From Candidatus Latescibacterota bacterium (GTDB lineage: Bacteria > Latescibacterota > UBA2968 > UBA8231), in NCBI GenBank assembly GCA_965208105.1, contig OZ242318.1, positions 672,001 to 736,000 of the forward strand: a stretch of 64,000 nucleotides of DNA, written 5' to 3'. The stretch's first letter is position 1; every line of letters begins with the position of its first letter. Position numbers and translations under genes: made by a program. Below, piece after piece: positions 22,520 through 33,770 of the stretch. The notes beneath the pieces were generated by a model, which saw only the letters and a list, made by a program, of their open reading frames with translations, did no database searches and was not told the origin of the DNA.

Positions 22520-24268
22520 TCAGGGCAGCGGGAGGCCGCTGCCCCGCTCCAGGGTATGGTAGCGATTGAGGTCAAAGGAGCTCCCCTCCCAGCGCTCGCG
22601 GGTGCCGTCGGGCCAGAGCACCTCGAGACGGCGGACCGTCGCCGCCGCGCCCAGCCCGAAAAGGACGCGTGGGTCGTTGGAGGAACAATAGCTGCCATCG
22701 GCGCGCACCCGGCGCCAGAGGGTGCGGCCGTCGCCCAGGGTGCAGCCGACGCGGGCGCCGAACTGGTCGCGCCCGCCCTCGCCGCCGACCAGGCGCAGGC
22801 CGAGATAGGCATTGCGCTGCCCCACGTTGTTGACCAGCAGCCGGGCGGGGCCGCTGTTGTTGAGGACGAGCACATCCGTATCGCCGTCGTTGTCCACGTC
22901 GCCGAAGGCGGCGCCGCGGCTGACCTCCGAGAGCGCGAAGACGGCTCCGGCGGCGGAGCTCACCTCCTCGAAGCGGCCCTTGCCGCGGTTGCGAAACAGC
23001 TGGTTGGTCTGATGCAGTGGCAGGGGATCCCCCGCCTGGACCAGGGCCTCGATCACGCGCACCGCTCCGTTGACCGCGAGCAGGTCGAGCCAGCCGTCGT
23101 TGTCGTAGTCCAGGTAGGCGGTGCCGAACCCGGTGAAGCCGCGGCTGGGAGCCCCGAGGCCGGCCTCGATGGTATCGTCCTCGAAGAAAGCGCCCCCCTG
23201 GTTGCGGTAGAGAGTATTGGTTTCTTCGGCCAGGTGGGTCATGAAGAGATCGTCGTCCCCGTCTCCGTCCATATCTCCCGCGTCGATGCCCATGCTGCCC
23301 TCGGGGATTCCCTGGGCGTTGAAGGCGGTCCCGCTCATGAGCGCCTGGTTGTCGAAGCGGCCGTCGCCCCGGTTGATCCACAACTGGTTGGCCATGCCGT
23401 CGTTGGCCACGTAGATATCGGGCCAATCGTCACCGCTGAAGTCGGCGGCGATGACACCGAGGGCCCCGCCGTATTCGGTGGTGATTCGGGAGAAGGCTGA
23501 AACGTCCTCGAAGGTCCCGTCGCCGAGGTTGCGCAGGAGCCGGTCCGGATAGGGCCGGTAGGTCAGGGGCCCGCAATAGTCCTCGGCACCGGCTGGCGAA
23601 TAGCAGGACTTGTGCACGGCCGGGGAAAAATCGACGTAATTTCCCACGTAGAGGTCGAGCCAGCCGTCGCCGTCGTAGTCCACGAAGGTGGCGCTGGTGC
23701 TCCAGCGCCGGTCGTCCGCGGCGGCGGCCAGGGTGACGTCGGTGAAGGTGCCGTCGCCGTTGTTGCGCAGCATCTGGTTGGCGCCGAAGTTGGTTACGTA
23801 GAGGTCCGGCAGGCCGTCATTGGTGAAATCTCCGGCCGCAACCCCCATCCCATAGCCGTCAGCGGCGATGCCTGCCGCGGCGGTGGCGTCGGAGAAGCGG
23901 AGCTGCCCTCTCTCCTCCAGGTGGTTGCGAAACAGGCGGTCGCTCCGCGCGCCTGCGGAGGGAGAGGTGGCCTCCTCCTCAATATCCTCTCCGATCGGAG
24001 CCCCCTGGACCAGGTAGGCATCGAGGTCGCCGTCGGCATCGTAGTCGAGGAGGGCGCCGCCGGGGCCGATGATCTCGGCCAGGTAGCGTCGCCCCGACAT
24101 CCCGTTGAAGTGGGTGAAGTCCAGGCCAAGGTCAGGCGCGCGGTCGGTGAAGATCTCCGCCGCGGCCGGAGCCTGCGATTCGGAGTCGCCGGGAGGGCCA
24201 GGGTCGAAGCCGCAGCCCAGGAAACCGATCAGAAAGGGGAGGCCTATTTCAACTGGTCGTATTACCAA
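22520..24268 (-). CDS. CRTAC1-family FG-GAP/VCBS + ASPIC/UnbV lipoprotein
   Basis: Lipobox GFLGC; repeated DYDxDGxxDLYV; SRGAAFGDVDNDGD; GSYCSSNDPRVLFGLG...EVLWPDG. Confidence 0.92.
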   Translation of the reverse strand: MVIRPVEIGLPFLIGFLGCGFDPGPPGDSESQAPAAAEIFTDRAPDLGLDFTHFNGMSGRRYLAEIIGPGGALLDYDADGDLDAYLVQGAPIGEDIEEEATSPSAGARSDRLFRNHLEERGQLRFSDATAAAGIAADGYGMGVAAGDFTNDGLPDLYVTNFGANQMLRNNGDGTFTDVTLAAAADDRRWSTSATFVDYDGDGWLDLYVGNYVDFSPAVHKSCYSPAGAEDYCGPLTYRPYPDRLLRNLGDGTFEDVSAFSRITTEYGGALGVIAADFSGDDWPDIYVANDGMANQLWINRGDGRFDNQALMSGTAFNAQGIPEGSMGIDAGDMDGDGDDDLFMTHLAEETNTLYRNQGGAFFEDDTIEAGLGAPSRGFTGFGTAYLDYDNDGWLDLLAVNGAVRVIEALVQAGDPLPLHQTNQLFRNRGKGRFEEVSSAAGAVFALSEVSRGAAFGDVDNDGDTDVLVLNNSGPARLLVNNVGQRNAYLGLRLVGGEGGRDQFGARVGCTLGDGRTLWRRVRADGSYCSSNDPRVLFGLGAAATVRRLEVLWPDGTRERWEGSSFDLNRYHTLERGSGLPLP

Positions 24269-25298: not shown

Positions 25299-27035
25299 TC
25301 ACCAGCCGATGGCATACGACGTGGACCGTGGGTCCGCGCCGCCGGTCCTGGTGCCCGTCTCCGGATCAATGGTGATGGCGCACACGCGGCTGACCCCCGC
25401 GCTCCAATCCCCGCCGTCTTCGACGAGGTGGCCGCGGTCCCGCAAAGCCTCGCGCACCCGTGGAGCGATGCGGGATTCCACCGTTACCTCTCCGGGCAAT
25501 GATTGGTGGGGCCAGAACGAGTTCGGGAAACTGTGGCTGATGACGCGGGGGGCCTCGATCGCCTCCTGCGGCTCCATTCCGAACTCGACGATGTTGAGGA
25601 ACACCTGCAGCATCCCCTGCACCTGGGCATCGCCACCGGGGCAGCCGAAGGGCATGAACGGCTTCCCATCCTTGAGGACCAGCGCCGGATTCGGCGTCAG
25701 GCGTGGACGCTTCCACGGCTGCAGACAGGAGGGGTGCGACGGATCGAGCCAGGTCTGCGTACCTCGTCCCGAGACCGGAAAGCCCAGGCCCGGAACCACC
25801 GGACACCAGCCAACCGGATCAGATGGAGTCGCCGAGAACGCATTGCCCTGCCCGTCCACCACGCAGAGGTAGCTGGTATCGCTCTCCCAGTGAGATTTTC
25901 GCCCCGGCTGTGGACGATCGGGGTCGATGACCGGGAAGGGACCGTTCTTGCGGCGCGGTTCAGGATGGAACCGCCACGGGTCGCCGGGGGACGGCATGTC
26001 ACCGGCGGCGCGGCCGGGGTCGATGCAATTCCGCCTTTCAGCGGCAAAGCGCTCATCCAGCAGACCCGCCATCGGGACCTGCACGAAATCGGGGTCGCCG
26101 AAATACGCCTCCCGGTCGGCAAACGCCAGTTTGAGCCCCTCGATGGTGGTGTGGAGGTAATCCGCGGATTCGTGCCCCATCCCCTTCAAGTCAACCCCTT
26201 CGAGAATCTTCAGCGCCATGTTCAAGGCCGGCCCCTGGCACCAGGGTCCACAGGTATACACATCATGGCCCTTGTAGGCGATGCGCACCGGCGGTTCGAC
26301 CCGAACCGAGAAGGCGGCGAGGTCCTCGTAGGTCAGCAGGCCCCCTTCCCGGGCATGAAAATCGGCGATCTCCCGGGCAATTTCGCCCTTGTAGATCAGG
26401 TCGCGCGCGGCCCTGATCCCCGTTTCCCGATCACCCCCTGTTCGCCGTTCGGCGGCGATCATGCGCCGGAAGGTGTTAGCCAGGTCCTTCTGGAAGAATA
26501 TTTCCCCGGTCCGCGGAATACGTCCACCGGGGTTGAAGACCACCGCCGTCGACGGCTCACTTACCTGCTCTCCGGCCGCGAAGGCGTGGAACTGACCGTC
26601 GACGGGGTGGCCGTTTTCGGCGAGGTCCAGGGCCGGCTGCACCACCTGCTCGAAGGTCATGGTGCCGAAGCGCGCCAACGCCGTAAGCCAGGCATCGGGA
26701 GCCGCCGGGGTGACGGTCCGCAAAATTCCCGGGGGCAGGTCGCCGCCGTGATGTTCCTGGAAGTAGCCGATGCTCGCCCCTTTTGGCCAGCGTCCGAGTC
26801 CGCTGATGGTTTCGACAGCTGCGCCCCGGGCCGGGCAATAGATAATCGGCGCAACACCGCCGAAGTGGGTGAGCCCGGGTTGAAGCACGTTGATACAGAT
26901 GCCGACGGCGACGCCTGCATCGGCGGCGTTGCCTCCCCATTCGAGGATGCGGACCCCGCCCATCGTTGCGAGGTAATGGACCGATGAGACCACGTAGCGC
27001 TTCCCTCGGACCGACGGACGATGACTTCCTGGCAT
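25299..27035 (-). CDS. ggt: Gamma-glutamyltransferase family protein
   Basis: Start MPGSHRPSVRG with GGAGG RBS; GGNAADA, DTSYLCVVDGQGNA (Thr nucleophile), PFGCPGGDAQ, GGADPR. Confidence 0.9.
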   Translation of the reverse strand: MPGSHRPSVRGKRYVVSSVHYLATMGGVRILEWGGNAADAGVAVGICINVLQPGLTHFGGVAPIIYCPARGAAVETISGLGRWPKGASIGYFQEHHGGDLPPGILRTVTPAAPDAWLTALARFGTMTFEQVVQPALDLAENGHPVDGQFHAFAAGEQVSEPSTAVVFNPGGRIPRTGEIFFQKDLANTFRRMIAAERRTGGDRETGIRAARDLIYKGEIAREIADFHAREGGLLTYEDLAAFSVRVEPPVRIAYKGHDVYTCGPWCQGPALNMALKILEGVDLKGMGHESADYLHTTIEGLKLAFADREAYFGDPDFVQVPMAGLLDERFAAERRNCIDPGRAAGDMPSPGDPWRFHPEPRRKNGPFPVIDPDRPQPGRKSHWESDTSYLCVVDGQGNAFSATPSDPVGWCPVVPGLGFPVSGRGTQTWLDPSHPSCLQPWKRPRLTPNPALVLKDGKPFMPFGCPGGDAQVQGMLQVFLNIVEFGMEPQEAIEAPRVISHSFPNSFWPHQSLPGEVTVESRIAPRVREALRDRGHLVEDGGDWSAGVSRVCAITIDPETGTRTGGADPRSTSYAIGW

Positions 27036-27289
27036 GCAGATTCCTCCTTCCCCCTGCCCCGGGGTGGTCCTCGACGCTGCCATGCACTGTGCCGGACAGG
27101 ATGAATAATCGGCCTTCTCCCGGTCCCCGACAAGGGCGCCGGATGGGGCAATGGCCAAGGTCAAGGCAACCCGCGTCCGCCGCGGCCCCGCATCCGGCCG
27201 CAGGTGGCGGAGATGCCTGATTGCCGCCGGATCAGTGATCGGATCCGCAATTGCGAGTCCCACCATGGATTCCGCCGGCCATCCTTCCC

Positions 27290-27318
27290 TTGCCATGGCC
27301 CGCCTTTTCCCGTACCAT
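27290..27318 (+). promoter_or_regulatory. Sigma70-type promoter for the ankyrin gene
   Basis: TTGCCA (27290-27295) - 17 nt - TACCAT (27313-27318). Confidence 0.6.
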
Positions 27319-27334
27319 CCCGAAGAGCGCTCCA

Positions 27335-27436
27335 GGGCGCCTCCGGTCCGCGGGCAGGGCTGAGCCCACCTGACACATCTTCTTCGATCCACATTCGACG
27401 GACTCTTCCTGCCCGTCACGCGGACACCGGGTGTTT
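27335..27436 (+). ncRNA. Candidate structured 5' leader RNA
   Basis: Nested stems GTCCGCG/CGCGGAC, GGCAGG/CCTGCC, GAGCCC/GGACTC plus basal GGCGCC/GGTGTT, between the predicted promoter and the GAGGAGG RBS. Confidence 0.55.
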
Positions 27437-27453
27437 CCAGCGAGGAGGTCGTC

Positions 27454-29397
27454 ATGGCTGCTTCCCAACCTTCCCAGGGTGCGCGTTCTCTTCCGCAACG
27501 ACCCGATCTGCGCCAACTCAAGAAACAGGCCAAGGAACTGCTCAAAGGGTATCGCTCCCGCGACCCGTCTGCGCTAACCGAGGTCGCGACACACGAGCGG
27601 GAGCCGGACCCTGGAAGCTTCTTCCTGAATGATGCACAGCGGGTGTTGGCCCGGTCCTACGGATTTACAAGCTGGGCAAAGCTGGTGGAGCACGTAAACG
27701 GCCGCAGTGCCGGTCGCTTCTGGGCGGCCGCCCAGGAAGGGGATCTGCCAACCCTGAAGTCGATTGCCGCCAAGCGGCCTGAGCTGGTCATGATGTCCCG
27801 GCCAGGTCTGGGCAACCCCCTGCACTGTGCCGTGCTCAACCGGGATGCCGCCTGCGCCGGCTTTCTGCTCGAAAACGGGGCCGACCCTCACAAGGGTGTC
27901 TATCCGCACCGCGAGTCCACTTCCCCGCTCGTTCTGGCCCGGGAAAGGGGATACGACGACATCGCGGAGATCATCGAGCGCGAGCTCCAGCGCAGGCGGG
28001 CGAGGGCCGGCGCCACCCGTTCGGATACAGCCGAGGTCGCCGAAGCGATCCGCAAGGGCGATGAGAACAGCGTCGATCGGTTGCTCTCGGCGGACTCCGC
28101 GCGGGCTGCGGCGGTGGACGAAAGGGGCCGCAGCCCGCTGCATCACGCTGCCTCTGCCCGCAACCGGGGCCTGACCCTTCGAATCCTGCAGTCGGACCGC
28201 GAACTCTCCAGACCTGACGTCGATGGATTGGCGCCGATCGACTGCGCCGTTCTGGCGGTGGACTGGACGCGGAGAGAGGAGACCACGAGGGAAGCCATTT
28301 CCGTTGCCCGGCTCCTGCTGGAGCACGGGGCGGGTCCCACTGCGCGAAGCGCGGCAGCCAGCGGAGACCTGGCCTACCTGCAGTCGCTGAGCCGCGCCAG
28401 AATGGAATCCTGCGCCGGGGAAGGCGGAGGGTTGCTGACCCTGGCCGTGGAATTCGGCCAGCGCGAGGTCCTGGACCATTTGCTGGAGAAGGGACTCGAT
28501 CCGGACGAACGGGTGCTACTCGATGAGGCGGAGGAAGAACTCTACACCTGGGGAATGCCGCTCTGGCACGCCGCCTTCCTTTCGGAGTACGAGATGGCGG
28601 AATCGTTGATTGCCGCCGGAGCCGACGTCAACCCCTCGGTGTATGCCAGCGGTTCACCGATGGACCAGGCTTACGGCGCCGATGACGAGAAGATGAAGGC
28701 ACTGTTGCGGCGCCACGGTGCGCTTACCAGTGTCGAAACCATGGGGTTGTATCGCGACACCGAGACGGCACGGGAGGCCCTGGAAGGCAGGGCGGCCGCC
28801 TACTCCCATTCCGACCCGGCTGTGGACGGCACCCCCGCAGAGAAGATGCTGTGGGCAGCGGCATGCGGGGGCGATCCCGAGATCGTCGCCATGTGTCTCG
28901 CCCGCATCGACCGCGCACCCGACGATTCATGGTGGGCGGTGATCCTGCTGCAGCCGATGCGGACCTGGAACCATGGTTACCACCGGCGTCACTCGGGGTT
29001 CGACCGCTCTACCTACACCCGGTGCCTCGGCCTGCTGCTGCAGCATGGCATCGATCCGAACGTGACCGACCAGCGGGGGTTCACCGCGCTGCACCATCTC
29101 GCCCACGGTTCCTGCTCGCGCGCTTGGTACATGACCGGGGACGAGGAGCTGGAGTTCGGCCGCCTGTTGCTGGATGCCGGCGCCAGTACGACCCTGCGCG
29201 ACCCTCTGCTGAAGTCGACCCCGCTGGGCTGGGCTTGCCGCAACAACCGGGTGGCGCTGGTGGAGTTGTTGCTCGAGCGCGCCGCCGCCGTCAACGAGCC
29301 GGAGGCCGAACCATGGGCGACGCCGCTGGCGTGGGCGGCCAAAATGGGTCACGAGGAGCTGGCGAAGTTCCTGCGCGAGCGCGGAGCGGTGGAATGA
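27454..29397 (+). CDS. Ankyrin repeat protein with N-terminal LPxRPxLxQLKKQAK helical domain
   Basis: SLPQRPDLRQLKKQAKELLK...DAQRVLARSYGFTSWAKL; multiple ankyrin repeats (NPLHCA, SPLHHA, TALHHLA, TPLGWAC, TPLAWAA). Confidence 0.9.
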   Translation: MAASQPSQGARSLPQRPDLRQLKKQAKELLKGYRSRDPSALTEVATHEREPDPGSFFLNDAQRVLARSYGFTSWAKLVEHVNGRSAGRFWAAAQEGDLPTLKSIAAKRPELVMMSRPGLGNPLHCAVLNRDAACAGFLLENGADPHKGVYPHRESTSPLVLARERGYDDIAEIIERELQRRRARAGATRSDTAEVAEAIRKGDENSVDRLLSADSARAAAVDERGRSPLHHAASARNRGLTLRILQSDRELSRPDVDGLAPIDCAVLAVDWTRREETTREAISVARLLLEHGAGPTARSAAASGDLAYLQSLSRARMESCAGEGGGLLTLAVEFGQREVLDHLLEKGLDPDERVLLDEAEEELYTWGMPLWHAAFLSEYEMAESLIAAGADVNPSVYASGSPMDQAYGADDEKMKALLRRHGALTSVETMGLYRDTETAREALEGRAAAYSHSDPAVDGTPAEKMLWAAACGGDPEIVAMCLARIDRAPDDSWWAVILLQPMRTWNHGYHRRHSGFDRSTYTRCLGLLLQHGIDPNVTDQRGFTALHHLAHGSCSRAWYMTGDEELEFGRLLLDAGASTTLRDPLLKSTPLGWACRNNRVALVELLLERAAAVNEPEAEPWATPLAWAAKMGHEELAKFLRERGAVE

Positions 29398-29536: not shown

Positions 29537-30607
29537 TCAGGCCGCGCCTCCCTTGACGGCGATTTTGATCGCGTCTCTGCCGTCCAGGTGATAGCTGCCA
29601 TGGAGCGCGTCGAAGCCCTTGGAAACCTCCTCCAGCGCAAGAATGTGGCTTACGAACCCTTCGAAGAGGGAGGCGTGCTTTTCCAGCATGGGGATGGCGC
29701 GGAGAAAGTGCTTCCCCTCGAATCCCCATCCGGCCTCCAACCTCAGGTTCTTCCTCATCAACATCCGGTTGGGATTGCATTCGAAGGAGCCGACGTCCAC
29801 GAAATGCCCATACACGACATAGGTTCCGCCGTACTTTATGTAGTCCAGGCCTTCGGGGATGGCGGGGAGAAAGCCGGTGCATTCGTAGACCACGTCCGCA
29901 CCTTTGCCCTGTGAGGTATTCTCCCGGACTATCCTCTTGCGCTCTTCCGGGTCCGCCACCTCGGCGATGTCGATTACGAGGTCCGCCCCCAACCTCCTCG
30001 CCATCTCGAGCCGGCCCGGTGGTCCGCCTACGACGATGAGCCGTCCGGCACCGGAAACTCTGGCCCAGTTGAGCGCAAGGAGACCTATCGGACCCGTTCC
30101 CTGGATCACAACCGTGTCCCCGAAGTCGATCCCGCCTCGGGACACGCAATGTGCAGCACACGAAGCAGGTTCGGCCAGAACGGCGATTTCGGGCGGCAGA
30201 TCGGTTTTGATGAACATGATCTCGTCCGGGTCCGAGAGATAGATGAATTCGCTGAACCCGCCGCGAAGATAGGGCTCTTCTTCCGACGGAGAAAACCCGA
30301 TTCCACCTTCGGGAGAGACAGCGATTCTGTCTCCCACTTCCACCGGATTGCCGAGAGAGTCTTTATCCACCCCCTCTCCCAGGGCATCGATCACACCGAC
30401 ATTCTCGTGCCCGAGGATGCTATCGTGGCCGATGCGCTGGAATTCCCAGTTGTGGAGGTCGGTTCCGCAAATGCCGCCCAACTCCTGGCGCACGAGGACG
30501 GTTCCGGGAGAGGGATCGGCTACGGGATACTCCCGGATTTCAAACTTCCTGCCACTCATCACGGCGGCACGTGCTGTTCTGGTTTCCATCGTCATTTCCG
30601 GTATCAT
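29537..30607 (-). CDS. Zinc-dependent MDR alcohol dehydrogenase
   Basis: GICGTD, LGHE, AEP catalytic Zn ligands; GTGPIG Rossmann motif. Confidence 0.9.
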   Translation of the reverse strand: MIPEMTMETRTARAAVMSGRKFEIREYPVADPSPGTVLVRQELGGICGTDLHNWEFQRIGHDSILGHENVGVIDALGEGVDKDSLGNPVEVGDRIAVSPEGGIGFSPSEEEPYLRGGFSEFIYLSDPDEIMFIKTDLPPEIAVLAEPASCAAHCVSRGGIDFGDTVVIQGTGPIGLLALNWARVSGAGRLIVVGGPPGRLEMARRLGADLVIDIAEVADPEERKRIVRENTSQGKGADVVYECTGFLPAIPEGLDYIKYGGTYVVYGHFVDVGSFECNPNRMLMRKNLRLEAGWGFEGKHFLRAIPMLEKHASLFEGFVSHILALEEVSKGFDALHGSYHLDGRDAIKIAVKGGAA

Positions 30608-30646
30608 TCCCTGTCGGCATGTGGAGAGAAATTCGCCAGCCGGTCG

Positions 30647-30675
30647 TAGACTCGATTTCGGCTGTGATATAAAAT
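30647..30675 (+). promoter_or_regulatory. Sigma70-type promoter for the CRTAC1-TPR gene
   Basis: TAGACT - 17 nt - TAAAAT in an AT-rich intergenic patch. Confidence 0.55.
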
Positions 30676-30728
30676 ATAGCCTGGATTTACCGCATCAAAC
30701 ACAACATGACCAAGTGAAGAGATTGGCA

Positions 30729-33700
30729 ATGGGACCCGCACCGGCATACCTGGCAGTTTGGGCCCTGATCGTCCTGACCTGGCCGTTGGGGTGTTCTCGC
30801 GAACCCGGCGAGCTATCCCGGGAAACCGGTCCTGGAATTTCCGCATCCGCCGGAAGTGGGGCCGCCGCCGTGGAGCCCGAATCCGGCAGGAGACCGGACC
30901 CCGCGCCCGCGGAGGCGGCCGCAGCACCTGGGGAAAGGGTGCGGTTCGTCGACGTGAGCCCCTCCTCCGGCCTCGACTTCACCCTCGAGTCCGGGTCTCC
31001 GCAGCAGGACTACATCGTCGCGGCCATGGCCGGCGGCGTCGCCTTTCTCGACTATGACGACGACGGCTACCAGGACGTCTTCATGGTCAGCAGCTCGCGC
31101 ATGGAGGGCCCCCCCGCCGGGGCTTTCAACCGCCTCTACAAAAACGTCCCGGGAAACGACGGCGGGCGCGTCTTTCGCGACGTGACCGAGGGATCGGGCC
31201 TGCAGCGCACCGGATGGGGGATGGGGTGCGCCACCGGCGACTACGACAACGACGGCGACGTGGACATCTACGTCACCTACGTGGGCCCCAACGCCCTCTA
31301 CCGCAACAACGGCGACGGCACCTTCGCCAGCGTCGGCCGCAGGGCGGGGGTGGCCGATGAACGCTGGGGCGCCAGCGCCGCCTTCGCCGACCTGGACGCC
31401 GACGGATTCCTGGATCTCTACGTGGCCAACTACCTCGTCTTCGATCCCGAGTCTCCCCCCGAACCGCGGCGCGGCTGGAAAGGGCTGGTGGTATTCTACG
31501 GACCCGACGGCATGGACACGGTCCCCGACGCCCTCTACCGCAACGACGGCGACGGTACCTTCACCGACCTCAGTGCGCGCACAGGTATGAACCGCTACTA
31601 CCTGCCGGGCCTGGGGGTGGTCTTCGGCGACTACGACAACGACGGCGACCAGGACATCTACGTGGCCAACGACGGGCTGCCGAACCTCCTCTTTCGCAAC
31701 GACGGCGATTGGCGCCTGACCGAAGTGGGCACCCCCGCCGAGGTGGCTTACAGCGACGACGGGCGCGCCCAGGCCGGAATGGGCACCACCTTCGGCGACT
31801 TCGACGACGACGGCGATGCCGATATTTTCGTCACCAACTATTCCGACGACGTCAACACCCTCTACCAGAACCAGGGAGACGGCTTTTTCATCGACGCCAC
31901 CTTCGCCCTCGGTCTGGGAGGCGAGGCACAGCCCTATCTGAGCTGGAGCACGAACTTCTTCGACTACGACAACGACCGCGACCTCGACCTCTTCGTGGTC
32001 AACGGCCATCTCTTCCCGCAGTTGCTCGACCACCCGTCGGGACTGCGCTATCCCCAGCGCAACCTGCTCTATGCCAACGAGGGAGGCCGCTTCCGGTCGG
32101 TCGGAGAATCGGCGGGACCTGGCCTGGCGGTGGAGAAAGTCAGCCGCGGCGGCGCCTTCGGAGACTACGACAACGACGGCGACGTCGACCTGCTGATCAC
32201 CAACCTGAACGACACTCCCGACCTGCTGCGCAACGAGGGCGGCAACCACAACAACTGGGTCGGCCTGGACCTGGTGGGAACCAGCTGCAACCGCGACGCC
32301 ATCGGCGCCCGGGTGCAGCTCTTTGCCGGCGGCCAGGTGCAGACGCGCGAGGTCAGACGCGCCTACGGCTACCAGTCCCAGCACGATCCCCGGCTCGTCT
32401 TCGGACTGGGGAATCTGAAAGAAGTGGACCGGGTGGAGATCCGCTGGCCCGGCGGAGGGACCCAGACCCTGCGCAACCCTCCCCTGCGCCGCTATCTGGT
32501 CGTGAAGGAAGCCAGCCCCGGCATCGCCGACAGCTACGCAGCCCGCGCCACCGCCCCCGGGTCCTCGGCGGCCTCGGCGCCGACAGGCCCCGAAAGGCCA
32601 TTCTCAGGGGACCGGCCGAGCTATTCCGGAGACCCCTCGTGGACGGCGGAGGAATACTATCTCCAGGGAGAGAAATTCTACGGATCGGGGCGCTACGGGG
32701 AGGCCATGGCCATGTTCGCCGAGGCAGTGCGGCTGCAGCCGGACCACTTCCAGGCCTACAGGGTGTGGGCGGCCACCCTGATCAAGGGTCTGGGAGATTA
32801 CCAGGGAGCCATCGAGTTGCTGGAGCCGGTGGTCCGCAGGGACTCCACCCGCGCCGAGCTCTACGACCTGATGGCCATGGGCCACATGGGCCTGGATGAG
32901 CCGGAGGAGGCGGTGGAGGCACTGGAGCGGGCCACCGCCCTGGACAGCACCGCGTGGAAATACCACAACCTCCTGGGAAGGGCATACCTGCGCAGCGGCG
33001 ACCTCGCCGCGGCCACCGCGTCCCTGGAACGGGCGGTCCGCATCGCCCCTTCCGCCACAGACCCCCACCTCCACCTCAGCCGGGTCCATGAGCGCCAGGG
33101 CCGCAGTCGGGAGGCGCAGCAGGAGCGCCACAGGTTCCAGACCCTGAAACGCGAACACAAGCAGCTCGAACCCTATCTGCGCAGGCTCGAAGAAGACCCG
33201 GACGACGAAGAAGCCCTCTACCTTCTCGCGGTGGGATACACCCGGCAGCGGCGCTACGAGGCCGCCCTGAAATGCTTCCAGCGGCTGGCCGAACTCACCC
33301 CCGGCCGCGGGATGGTCCACTACGGCCTAGGGGTTGCCTATCACAACCTGGGACGGTTCGAGGAGGCTATCCCGGCCTACAACCACGCCTATGGCCTCGA
33401 CAGCCGCCTGTCCCTGGTCTTCAACGACCTGGGGCGCGCCTACCAGCAGCTGGGGCGCCTGGACGAAGCCCTTGCCGCCTACCGCAGGCTCGTCCGGCTC
33501 AAACCCGATTTCGCCCTGGTCCGAAGCCATCTGGGCGAGGTATACGCCCTGCAGGGAAAGAAGCGGCAGGCCATTGAAGCCTACGAAGAAGCCCTGGCGC
33601 TGGATCCCACTCTGACCGAAAGCCGCGCGGCCCTGGCACGCCTCTACGCAGAGGCCGGACGCCTGCGGGAGGCAGTCGGGGAATGGAAGATCGTGGTGCA

Positions 33701-33770
33701 ACAGGACCCCGGCCATCCCACGGCGAAATCCGACCTGGAGCAGGCGCAGCAGCGTTTGTCCACCCGCTGA
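30729..33770 (+). CDS. CRTAC1/ASPIC-UnbV - TPR fusion lipoprotein
   Basis: Lipobox WPLGC; FG-GAP repeats (GDYDNDGDVDIYV); YQSQHDPRLVFGLG...EIRWPGG; C-terminal TPR array; start 30714 or 30729. Confidence 0.9.
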   Translation: MGPAPAYLAVWALIVLTWPLGCSREPGELSRETGPGISASAGSGAAAVEPESGRRPDPAPAEAAAAPGERVRFVDVSPSSGLDFTLESGSPQQDYIVAAMAGGVAFLDYDDDGYQDVFMVSSSRMEGPPAGAFNRLYKNVPGNDGGRVFRDVTEGSGLQRTGWGMGCATGDYDNDGDVDIYVTYVGPNALYRNNGDGTFASVGRRAGVADERWGASAAFADLDADGFLDLYVANYLVFDPESPPEPRRGWKGLVVFYGPDGMDTVPDALYRNDGDGTFTDLSARTGMNRYYLPGLGVVFGDYDNDGDQDIYVANDGLPNLLFRNDGDWRLTEVGTPAEVAYSDDGRAQAGMGTTFGDFDDDGDADIFVTNYSDDVNTLYQNQGDGFFIDATFALGLGGEAQPYLSWSTNFFDYDNDRDLDLFVVNGHLFPQLLDHPSGLRYPQRNLLYANEGGRFRSVGESAGPGLAVEKVSRGGAFGDYDNDGDVDLLITNLNDTPDLLRNEGGNHNNWVGLDLVGTSCNRDAIGARVQLFAGGQVQTREVRRAYGYQSQHDPRLVFGLGNLKEVDRVEIRWPGGGTQTLRNPPLRRYLVVKEASPGIADSYAARATAPGSSAASAPTGPERPFSGDRPSYSGDPSWTAEEYYLQGEKFYGSGRYGEAMAMFAEAVRLQPDHFQAYRVWAATLIKGLGDYQGAIELLEPVVRRDSTRAELYDLMAMGHMGLDEPEEAVEALERATALDSTAWKYHNLLGRAYLRSGDLAAATASLERAVRIAPSATDPHLHLSRVHERQGRSREAQQERHRFQTLKREHKQLEPYLRRLEEDPDDEEALYLLAVGYTRQRRYEAALKCFQRLAELTPGRGMVHYGLGVAYHNLGRFEEAIPAYNHAYGLDSRLSLVFNDLGRAYQQLGRLDEALAAYRRLVRLKPDFALVRSHLGEVYALQGKKRQAIEAYEEALALDPTLTESRAALARLYAEAGRLREAVGEWKIVVQQDPGHPTAKSDLEQAQQRLSTR

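Follow-up and report, generated by a model that had tools for sequence, protein, structure and literature searches.

The question raised by this locus is whether the DNA between a promoter and the start codon of an ankyrin repeat gene encodes a regulatory RNA and, if so, how that RNA might act. The gene lies in the window analysed here, a 64,000-nucleotide (nt) stretch of the genome of Candidatus Latescibacterota bacterium (assembly GCA_965208105.1, contig OZ242318.1, positions 672,001 to 736,000 of the forward strand); coordinates are those of the window unless stated otherwise. A preliminary description made from the sequence alone had proposed that this gene family is coupled to an undescribed RNA, either cis-regulatory or protein-binding, and our computational analysis supports that proposal on each point that could be tested. 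Sequence comparison demonstrated the conservation of a leader upstream of the gene, the covariation of six base pairings within it, its position behind a promoter, the pairing of its ribosome binding site (RBS) and its association with genes that share an N-terminal domain (N-domain). Based on these observations, we consider it probable that the leader is a structured RNA of a new family that regulates translation in cis by sequestering the Shine-Dalgarno (SD) sequence.

Distribution of the leader

Residues 1-99 of the ankyrin protein have matches at eight further places in its own 4.85-Mb genome, and the 260 nt upstream were read for eight of the nine genes that encode this N-domain. The leader is common to four of the N-domain genes, namely that of the window and those starting at genome positions 2519358, 856126 and 2014495, and in these it stretches from just past the -10 box to the ATG. 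Folding of the four-copy alignment (A1) with RNAalifold gave a 5′ hairpin, a long-range helix (GTCCGC/GCGGAC) and a small hairpin (GGGC/GCCC, with GAAC/GTTC in one copy). Both sides have changed in five pairs of this alignment. A covariance model built from the four own-genome copies (R1) found exactly these four in the genome, with E values of 8.3e-29 to 1.6e-22 and a next hit at E 2.3. The window copy has the following extent.

27320 to 27456, + strand: whole leader motif (about 135 nt), through the ATG; R1 E 7.7e-28 and 128.8 bits, 98.9 bits with a second model, R2

At E ≤ 0.1, R1 had matches in 50 of 101 related genomes, the largest number being 16 copies in a single genome. R2 was built with helix P3 and the helix that pairs the SD in place of helix P1 (all three are described below), and it matched 58 of 151 genomes sampled across the phylum; because many of the genomes with no match are incomplete, the lack of a match does not show absence. 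A scan of one genome per prokaryote species with a degenerate pattern matched at least 120 stretches. Among the matches listed, 75 of the 80 loci that were fetched are full-length hits to both R1 (E ≤ 8.7e-9) and R2. Going by record titles, most of the 75 come from Acidobacteriota and the others from Gemmatimonadota, Actinomycetota, Alphaproteobacteria (Inquilinus), Armatimonadota, Planctomycetota, Chloroflexota and Eremiobacterota; on this basis the leader is present in nine phyla or more. The five remaining loci (L146, L168, L179, L215 and L219, which include the only Achromobacter record) failed both models and were taken as chance. The conserved, covarying structure that the preliminary description had suggested seeking upstream of homologues was found, and the leader core is kept in at least eight phyla, with the adjacent protein domain down to 24-69% identity. 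In the whole collection of viral contigs the pattern matched a single stretch, and we therefore see no phage link.

One N-domain gene of the same genome retains only a remnant. The gene at genome position 4339707, a paralogue of the 2014495 gene, lies about 80 nt after its upstream gene, and at 4339620-4339709 only the last ~25 nt of the leader are left (its SD region, ...CCGTCGAAAGGAGG...), the 5′ domain being lost; it looks like a natural leader-less control. Elsewhere, two leader-bearing genes follow one another on one strand, less than 2 kb apart (G050:C73:90761-90900 and 92528-92664; L133 and L130), each with its own leader, and both encode an N-domain followed by FliG_C.

Covariation of the leader structure

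Pairing was counted in two larger alignments. A3 holds 100 copies from related genomes and was compared with 500 column shuffles, and A6 holds 95 copies outside the training set of R2, with 75 from other phyla and 20 from relatives. Covariation backs six pairings: hairpin P0, a pseudoknot made by the P0 loop, hairpin P2, the long-range helix P1, helix P3 and a helix between an anti-SD tract and the SD. The first five are located in the window copy as follows, together with an unpaired junction and a linker.

27327 to 27340, + strand: P0 hairpin, GCGC (27327-30) with GCGC (27337-40) and loop 27331-36; covariation
27333 to 27336, + strand: 5′ strand of the pseudoknot, CAGG, the 3′ half of the P0 loop; covariation
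27346 to 27351, + strand: 5′ strand of P1, GTCCGC; covariation
27352 to 27356, + strand: conserved unpaired junction, consensus GGnAA (here GGGCA); consensus of 100 copies, with G, G and A at 90% or more
27357 to 27367, + strand: P2 hairpin, GGGC, TGA loop, GCCC; covariation
27369 to 27372, + strand: 3′ strand of the pseudoknot, CCTG, right after the conserved A that follows P2; covariation
27373 to 27396, + strand: variable linker, about 15-40 nt family-wide, no conserved columns; alignment views
27411 to 27415, + strand: 5′ strand of P3, GCCCG; covariation and register parse
27420 to 27425, + strand: 3′ strand of P1, GCGGAC, inside the P3 loop; covariation
27428 to 27432, + strand: 3′ strand of P3, CGGGT; covariation and register parse

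P0 is paired in 98.5% of cells in A3, where both sides have changed in three of its four pairs (counts at one pair: UA 57, GC 31, CG 5 and AU 2), and in 98.4% of cells in A6, with all four pairs so changed. P2 is paired in 100% of cells in A3, again with four of four pairs changed on both sides, and in 99.5% of those in A6. For P1 the corresponding values are 98.8% and five of six pairs in A3, and 97.3% of cells are paired in A4, an alignment that includes copies from other phyla; its inner pairs are invariant in such copies because the pattern that selected them fixes part of P1. None of the 500 shuffles of A3 reached the observed values for P0, P1 or P2. In the 4-bp pseudoknot, the third pair reads AT 63, GC 24 and CG 4, and the fourth is paired in 81 of 99 copies (shuffle mean 42, maximum 56). 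This was replicated on an independent set (65 of 94 paired; shuffle mean 36, maximum 49). In the 100 copies, conservation reaches 90% or more at the unpaired junction bases, cnCCn and GGnAA. Within the linker, the window copy has a local TCGA/TCGA stem that is shared with close relatives only.

P3, a helix of 5 bp, is paired in 97.9% of A6, and its middle pair reads UA 49, CG 33, UG 8 and GC 1; a register parse of 171 copies agrees with these counts. Shifting the 3′ partner by one to three columns cuts the overall pairing in A6 from 95.5% to 42-57%. In the 100 copies the 3′ strand of P1 begins 2-8 nt after the 5′ strand of P3 and ends 0-4 nt (mode 2) before its 3′ strand. Since the P1 strand sits in the P3 loop, the two helices must be either mutually exclusive or stacked into one pseudoknot. 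That they have to be exclusive for steric reasons was considered and dropped, as a coaxially stacked pseudoknot is geometrically possible too.

A 155-nt contig of run X3, whose DNA is nearly identical and which may be the source of this genome, matches only positions 27338-27372 of the window (35 nt, two differences) and then diverges. It is most likely another copy of the leader, showing conservation of the P0-P2 core.

Pairing of the ribosome binding site

The preliminary description had placed the end of its hairpin about 5 nt before the RBS. The GAGGAGG that it named is indeed the RBS, at 27442-48 and 5 nt before the ATG at 27454, but the element runs on and the RBS belongs to the motif. 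Two segments form this part of the leader.

27397 to 27411, + strand: anti-SD pyrimidine tract, family consensus ACCUUCUUUC, here GACG..CUCUUCCUG; duplex energy and covariation
27442 to 27448, + strand: SD, GAGGAGG, within the anti-SD helix; sequence and duplex fold

Across the family the tract ACCUUCUUUC pairs with an SD region that reads GGAAAGAGGGU or GAAAGGAGG, which gives a helix of about 10 bp. In the window copy, CUCUUCCUG (27403-11) and GACG (27397-400) pair with 27438-47 and 27450-53, burying GAGGAG; this duplex has an energy of -17.3 kcal/mol, and the minimum free energy (MFE) of the platform is -27.0 kcal/mol. The mean duplex energy in 172 copies is -16.0 kcal/mol, compared with -8.7 kcal/mol when the tract is shuffled. 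In A6 the helix is paired in 91.5% of cells, with seven of ten pairs changed on both sides, and the conserved U-G pairs (at one position, UG 65 and UA 26) fit an RNA of the gene's strand. Folded alone, the platform has a mean z of -2.06, and 47% of copies fall under -2.

Modelling suggests that P1 and P3 have different consequences for the SD. With P3 enforced, 9.4 of 10 positions of the SD region are predicted to be paired on average, whereas enforcing P1 gives 4.5 of 10. Compared in a nested energy model, P3 yields the more stable state of the two, by 4.6 kcal/mol on average; a bound ligand might overcome a gap of this size.

Fold of the window copy

The secondary structure given in the preliminary description, one long interrupted hairpin of four helices, stood only in part. 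The hairpin does appear in the single-sequence MFE structure of the window copy, yet its stability is that of chance: 27325-27453 folds at -46.8 kcal/mol, compared with a shuffle mean of -47.65 kcal/mol, and its stability is equalled or surpassed by 109 of 200 shuffles (the opposite strand of the leader has a fold z of -0.69). The helix reported as GTCCGCG/CGCGGAC was retained, as GTCCGC (27346-51) and GCGGAC (27420-25) are the two strands of the conserved, covarying P1. The other three helices, and with them the single hairpin, were not. GGCAGG/CCTGCC and GAGCCC/GGACTC are not conserved and overlap the P2 hairpin (GGGC 27357-60 / GCCC 27364-67), and GGCGCC/GGTGTT, which is not conserved either, overlaps P0 (27327-30/27337-40) and the 3′ strand of P3.

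GGCAGG/CCTGCC, the second helix of that hairpin, showed no covariation. Its best contiguous pairing was 5.19 within a sequence and 5.19 with other sequences, and the duplex energy over 172 sequences was -7.0 kcal/mol, compared with -6.8 kcal/mol for a shuffled partner. It is strong in the lineage of the window only (-16.8 kcal/mol in the window copy), and the GGGCAGGGC block of this copy is common to only 3 of the 172. An "anti-anti-SD" role for the 5′ purine block GGnAAGGG, which would compete for the pyrimidine tract, was also rejected. This pairing has no family-wide support (-7.0 and -6.8 kcal/mol, as above) and is strong only in the window's lineage.

Promoter and transcript

The leader of the ankyrin gene lies within a 417-nt divergent intergenic region and is preceded by two promoter-like hexamers.

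27290 to 27295, + strand: -35-like hexamer TTGCCA; promoter scan, with TTG enriched at equal distance from P0 family-wide
27313 to 27318, + strand: -10-like hexamer TACCAT; promoter scan; the implied start would be near 27325, 1-2 nt before P0

The σ70-like promoter first proposed here (TTGCCA-17-TACCAT, 27290-27318) was borne out, with nine of 12 matches to the consensus and one site where 0.1 were expected in shuffles. Among the 174 copies with enough upstream sequence, 148 have their best σ70-like -35/-10 match 6-11 nt ahead of the first P0 base, with a peak at 9 nt; the gap in the window copy is 8 nt. Given this fixed spacing, the leader is predicted to begin essentially at P0. Contigs 95-99% alike to the region were found in two sponge metatranscriptome runs. 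One of them, 188 nt long, spans 27389-27573, that is, the 3′ part of the leader and the start of the gene, and none covers 27157-27388. These contigs show presence in the RNA libraries of a near relative, nothing more.

Downstream genes and the N-domain

The gene that the leader precedes in the window is given first, followed by its divergent neighbor.

27454 to 29397, + strand: regulated gene, 647-amino acid (aa) protein with an N-terminal domain and then ankyrin repeats; Ank_2 E 9.4e-35
25299 to 27035, - strand: gamma-glutamyltranspeptidase gene, which bounds the intergenic region and lies outside the element; PF01019 E 8.9e-110

The N-domain has a length of about 90 aa (about aa 1-90, 27454-27723) and the pattern LPxxPxLxxLKKQAKxLL...DAQxVIAREYGFxSWxxL. 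A profile search found it in the open reading frame (ORF) at the motif's ATG for 109 of the 133 relatives' copies and for 66 of the 75 that come from other phyla; most of the remaining ORFs begin alike and then lose frame. The clear exceptions are four full leader copies (L101, L106, L108 and L131, from the relatives G004, G025, G033 and G013, respectively) that precede FliG_C-only proteins of 64-96 aa with no N-domain. Because FliG_C follows the N-domain in other proteins, these cases suggest that the leader tracks a functional gene set and not the N-domain alone.

Of the 108 downstream ORFs with 90 aa or more, 67 were compared with Pfam after near-duplicates and broken ORFs had been thinned by eye. 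In these 67 the N-domain is followed by the domains listed here.

Ankyrin repeats: 20 proteins
FliG_C or FliG_N: 13 proteins
FliM: 6 proteins
Sigma-54 AAA+: 4 proteins
Clp_N: 3 proteins
BFN nuclease domain: 3 proteins
APH: 2 proteins
TPR: 1 protein
AhpC: 1 protein
Methyltransferase: 1 protein
Nothing recognized: 13 proteins

In four relatives' proteins (L023, L024, L054 and L064) the N-domain replaces the usual sensory domain of sigma-54-interaction AAA+ proteins, and Pfam reported no DNA-binding domain in them. The ankyrin part of the window's protein was also considered as an NCBIfam Ank effector and was rejected, the hits being generic, at repeat level and far under cut-off.

The domain itself is widespread. 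Its profile found nine genes in the genome of the window, namely the window's own (27454-27738) and those at 830178, 856126, 2014495, 2519358, 4311394, 4339707, 4606382 and ~4632299, and five of the nine are without the leader. In a library of 1.84 billion proteins it matched 10,736 clusters (50% identity) at E ≤ 0.001 and 5,708 at 1e-10, and many proteins hold the domain two or three times, as several matched stretches. Searches of Pfam and NCBIfam gave no family for the N-domain, only chance or sub-threshold rows. Among PDB sequences there was no relative (the best hit, at E 0.0098, is a designed protein), and all clusters retrieved from the ESM Atlas, at 0.79, are labelled "hypothetical protein". 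The structure is predicted to consist of four helices (pLDDT 76.2), for which neither Foldseek (best E 4.8) nor VIA-align (best Z 3.8) found a convincing relative.

Farther out, the locus is flanked by two large ORFs, at 22520-24268 (- strand) and 30348-33770 (+ strand). Judged by eye, their translations have D-x-D-x-DG / FG-GAP-like repeats, and that of 30348-33770 also has a TPR-like tail.

Proposed mechanism and alternative explanations

Taken together, these analyses suggest the following mechanism. Transcription would start 1-3 nt before P0, and the 5′ half of the leader would fold into a compact domain made of P0, the P0-loop pseudoknot, P2 and the unpaired junctions cnCCn and GGnAA. The 3′ half would form a hairpin of P3 and the ~10-bp helix between pyrimidine tract and SD, which would occlude the RBS. 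P1 would tie the halves together, and since the hairpin that occludes the RBS carries the 3′ strand of P1 in its apical loop, the RBS can be made to follow the state of the 5′ domain. The leader would thereby control, in cis, the initiation of translation for genes that have the N-domain in common. That the leader switches, and what flips the switch, we infer. As to the type of effector, our leading guess is a small molecule or an ion, although we hold it with somewhat less than even confidence. Under this model the occluded fold would be the default OFF state, and a ligand-stabilized 5′ domain with P1 closed would shift the balance. A riboswitch of this kind is favored because the conserved junctions resemble those of an aptamer, because the leader ranges over several phyla and because a genome can hold many copies of it. 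The leader has two traits that are general to riboswitches, namely an aptamer-like domain with covarying helices (P0, the pseudoknot, P2 and P1) and invariant unpaired bases, and an expression platform, the anti-SD:SD helix, that overlaps the RBS. More tentatively still, the leader may represent a new multi-phylum riboswitch class that senses a global signal (a second messenger, an alarmone or an ion) and turns on or off a regulon of proteins that are otherwise unrelated (ankyrin, FliG/FliM-like, Clp_N, sigma-54 AAA+, kinase-like and others) but are marked by the N-domain, with its more than 10,000 clusters. In that case the RNA and the protein domain would be a co-inherited "leader plus N-domain" module.

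Several observations weigh against the interpretation of the leader as an SD-sequestering regulator. The fold of the window copy is not unusually stable (z +0.21), and the fold z of the whole motif averages only -0.73 across the family. The pairs counted in A3 and A6 are those of the models to which the copies had been aligned, so the counts lean towards those structures; related sequences can beat column shuffles without any structure; and the pattern used to choose the copies from other phyla in A4 and A6 already fixes part of P1 and part of the pyrimidine tract. With only 0-4 nt between them, P1 and P3 could be mutually exclusive or form one stacked pseudoknot, and the data fit either. The RNA data consist of two contig sets from a near relative, and contigs cannot show start, strand or level. 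Finally, the regulated proteins have no metabolic theme, which is unusual for a metabolite riboswitch and would fit a protein effector equally well.

A protein effector acting on the same RNA is the main rival explanation, although we rate it as rather unlikely. The N-domain could feed back on the leaders of its own gene family, or another RNA-binding protein could take that role. RNA and N-domain travel together across phyla (109/133 and 66/75 copies, as above), the domain has a conserved basic helix, LKKQAK, and the gene set points to no metabolite. Moreover, the N-domain is the sole feature that the products share, because their C-terminal modules are unrelated to each other. However, four leaders lie upstream of FliG_C-only proteins, in which the N-domain is missing, and five of the nine N-domain genes in the genome lack a leader. 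The predicted N-domain also resembles no solved RNA-binding fold (Foldseek E 4.8, Z 3.8), a result that is inconclusive and not negative. We regard it as improbable that the device needs no effector and works as an RNA thermometer or as a constitutive element that damps translation or affects stability, with the 5′ domain as a scaffold only; the anti-SD helix would then melt or be opened by general factors. The pyrimidine tract does pair with the SD through several conserved U-G wobbles, a likeness to ROSE and fourU elements, and products such as Clp_N and AhpC suggest a stress response. Nevertheless, a thermometer needs neither a pseudoknotted 5′ domain with about ten invariant unpaired bases nor a covarying long-range P1, and no thermometer family of Rfam matches.

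The two remaining explanations concern the structure itself and the level at which it is selected. The preliminary description's hairpin, spanning ~27336-27435, is very unlikely to be the functional structure. It dominates the single-sequence MFE of the window copy, where its second helix reaches -16.8 kcal/mol, but its energy is at chance level, and three of its four helices are unconserved, lack covariation and clash with the covarying P0, P2 and P3. Least credible of all is that the stretch is not a functional RNA and represents a gene-duplication remnant or a DNA-level operator beside the promoter. The copies do adjoin paralogous genes and lie directly after a promoter. However, the core persists in at least eight phyla, in which the adjacent protein domain is down to 24-69% identity, the element extends to the start codon with the SD included, and the compensatory changes and U-G pairs indicate that selection acts on the pairing of the RNA.

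Novelty and significance

The preliminary description had found no match to a riboswitch consensus, and Rfam agrees. When the 4227 covariance models of Rfam 15 were compared with window positions 26800-27700 (E ≤ 10), no family matched; two chance hits were obtained, with 13-15 bits against thresholds of 39-40. Twenty diverse copies (E ≤ 5) likewise had no match, with a single opposite-strand hit in one of the 20 (malK-III, 27 bits against 50). Neither the ZTP (pfl) model RF01750 nor the thermometer models ROSE and fourU matched the window or the 20 copies. No description of the leader was found in a full-text literature search, outside which subscription papers lie. In the parts of Weinberg 2010 that the search covered (PMC2864571), the motifs Rhodopirellula-1, Soil-1 and Solibacter-1 differ in sequence from the leader, and its pyrimidine-tract strings are absent from the four supplement files. 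The main text of Weinberg 2017 (PMC5737381) makes no mention of ankyrin, Acidobacteria, Planctomycetes or Gemmatimonadetes; its supplements, which lie outside the search, may bear on novelty. The same four terms never occur in the main texts of Brewer 2021 (PMC8632094) and Narunsky 2024 (PMC11109978). We therefore think it unlikely that the leader has been described before.

The leader is tied to a large protein family that is named in no domain database, and its trigger would therefore also be the first functional handle on the N-domain family. Ankyrin proteins of sponge symbionts have been implicated in host interaction. A translational switch on such a protein would be of ecological interest. 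R1, R2 and alignments A3-A6 could be converted directly into a database family.

Comparison with known systems

The leader resembles several known systems, among them the ZTP, SAM-II, preQ1 and GEMM riboswitches and the thermometers, but the resemblance appears to be architectural, and none of their covariance models matched the leader. The ZTP riboswitch has two sub-domains, a variable linker and a long-range pseudoknot, and its 3′ sub-domain overlaps the expression platform. The leader likewise has two sub-domains, a linker of variable length, a long-range pseudoknot and a 3′ part that overlaps the platform; however, it has no covariance-model match to ZTP, its conserved sequences are different, and it precedes a non-metabolic protein family, whereas ZTP controls purine and folate genes. 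SAM-II and preQ1-II/III riboswitches are 50-100 nt long and hold the SD inside the aptamer pseudoknot. Similar to these, the leader appears to place its RBS in a helix that depends on a pseudoknotted aptamer, and it has no terminator. Unlike these, it has no Rfam match, and it holds the SD in a separate ~15-bp hairpin (P3 and the anti-SD:SD helix) that would contact the aptamer-like domain only through P1 in its loop.

The presence of up to 16 copies in a genome, before diverse and partly motility-related genes (FliG_C, FliM and sigma-54 activators), is reminiscent of the c-di-GMP-I (GEMM) riboswitch. In contrast, there is no similarity to GEMM in sequence or model, and strict coupling to one N-terminal protein domain is a trait of the leader and not of GEMM. 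The pairing of the SD to a pyrimidine-rich strand with wobbles is shared with ROSE and fourU thermometers, which are simple hairpins; the leader adds to this a covarying, pseudoknotted 5′ domain and a long-range helix. The autoregulatory leaders of ribosomal protein genes are also structured and occlude the RBS of a gene whose product could bind. Here, however, the products are not ribosomal, some of the regulated genes lack the N-domain, and structure searches with the N-domain gave no sign of RNA binding. Orphan structured leaders that combine covariation, a platform and a multi-phylum range are the usual starting point for the identification of new riboswitch ligands or RNA-protein circuits.

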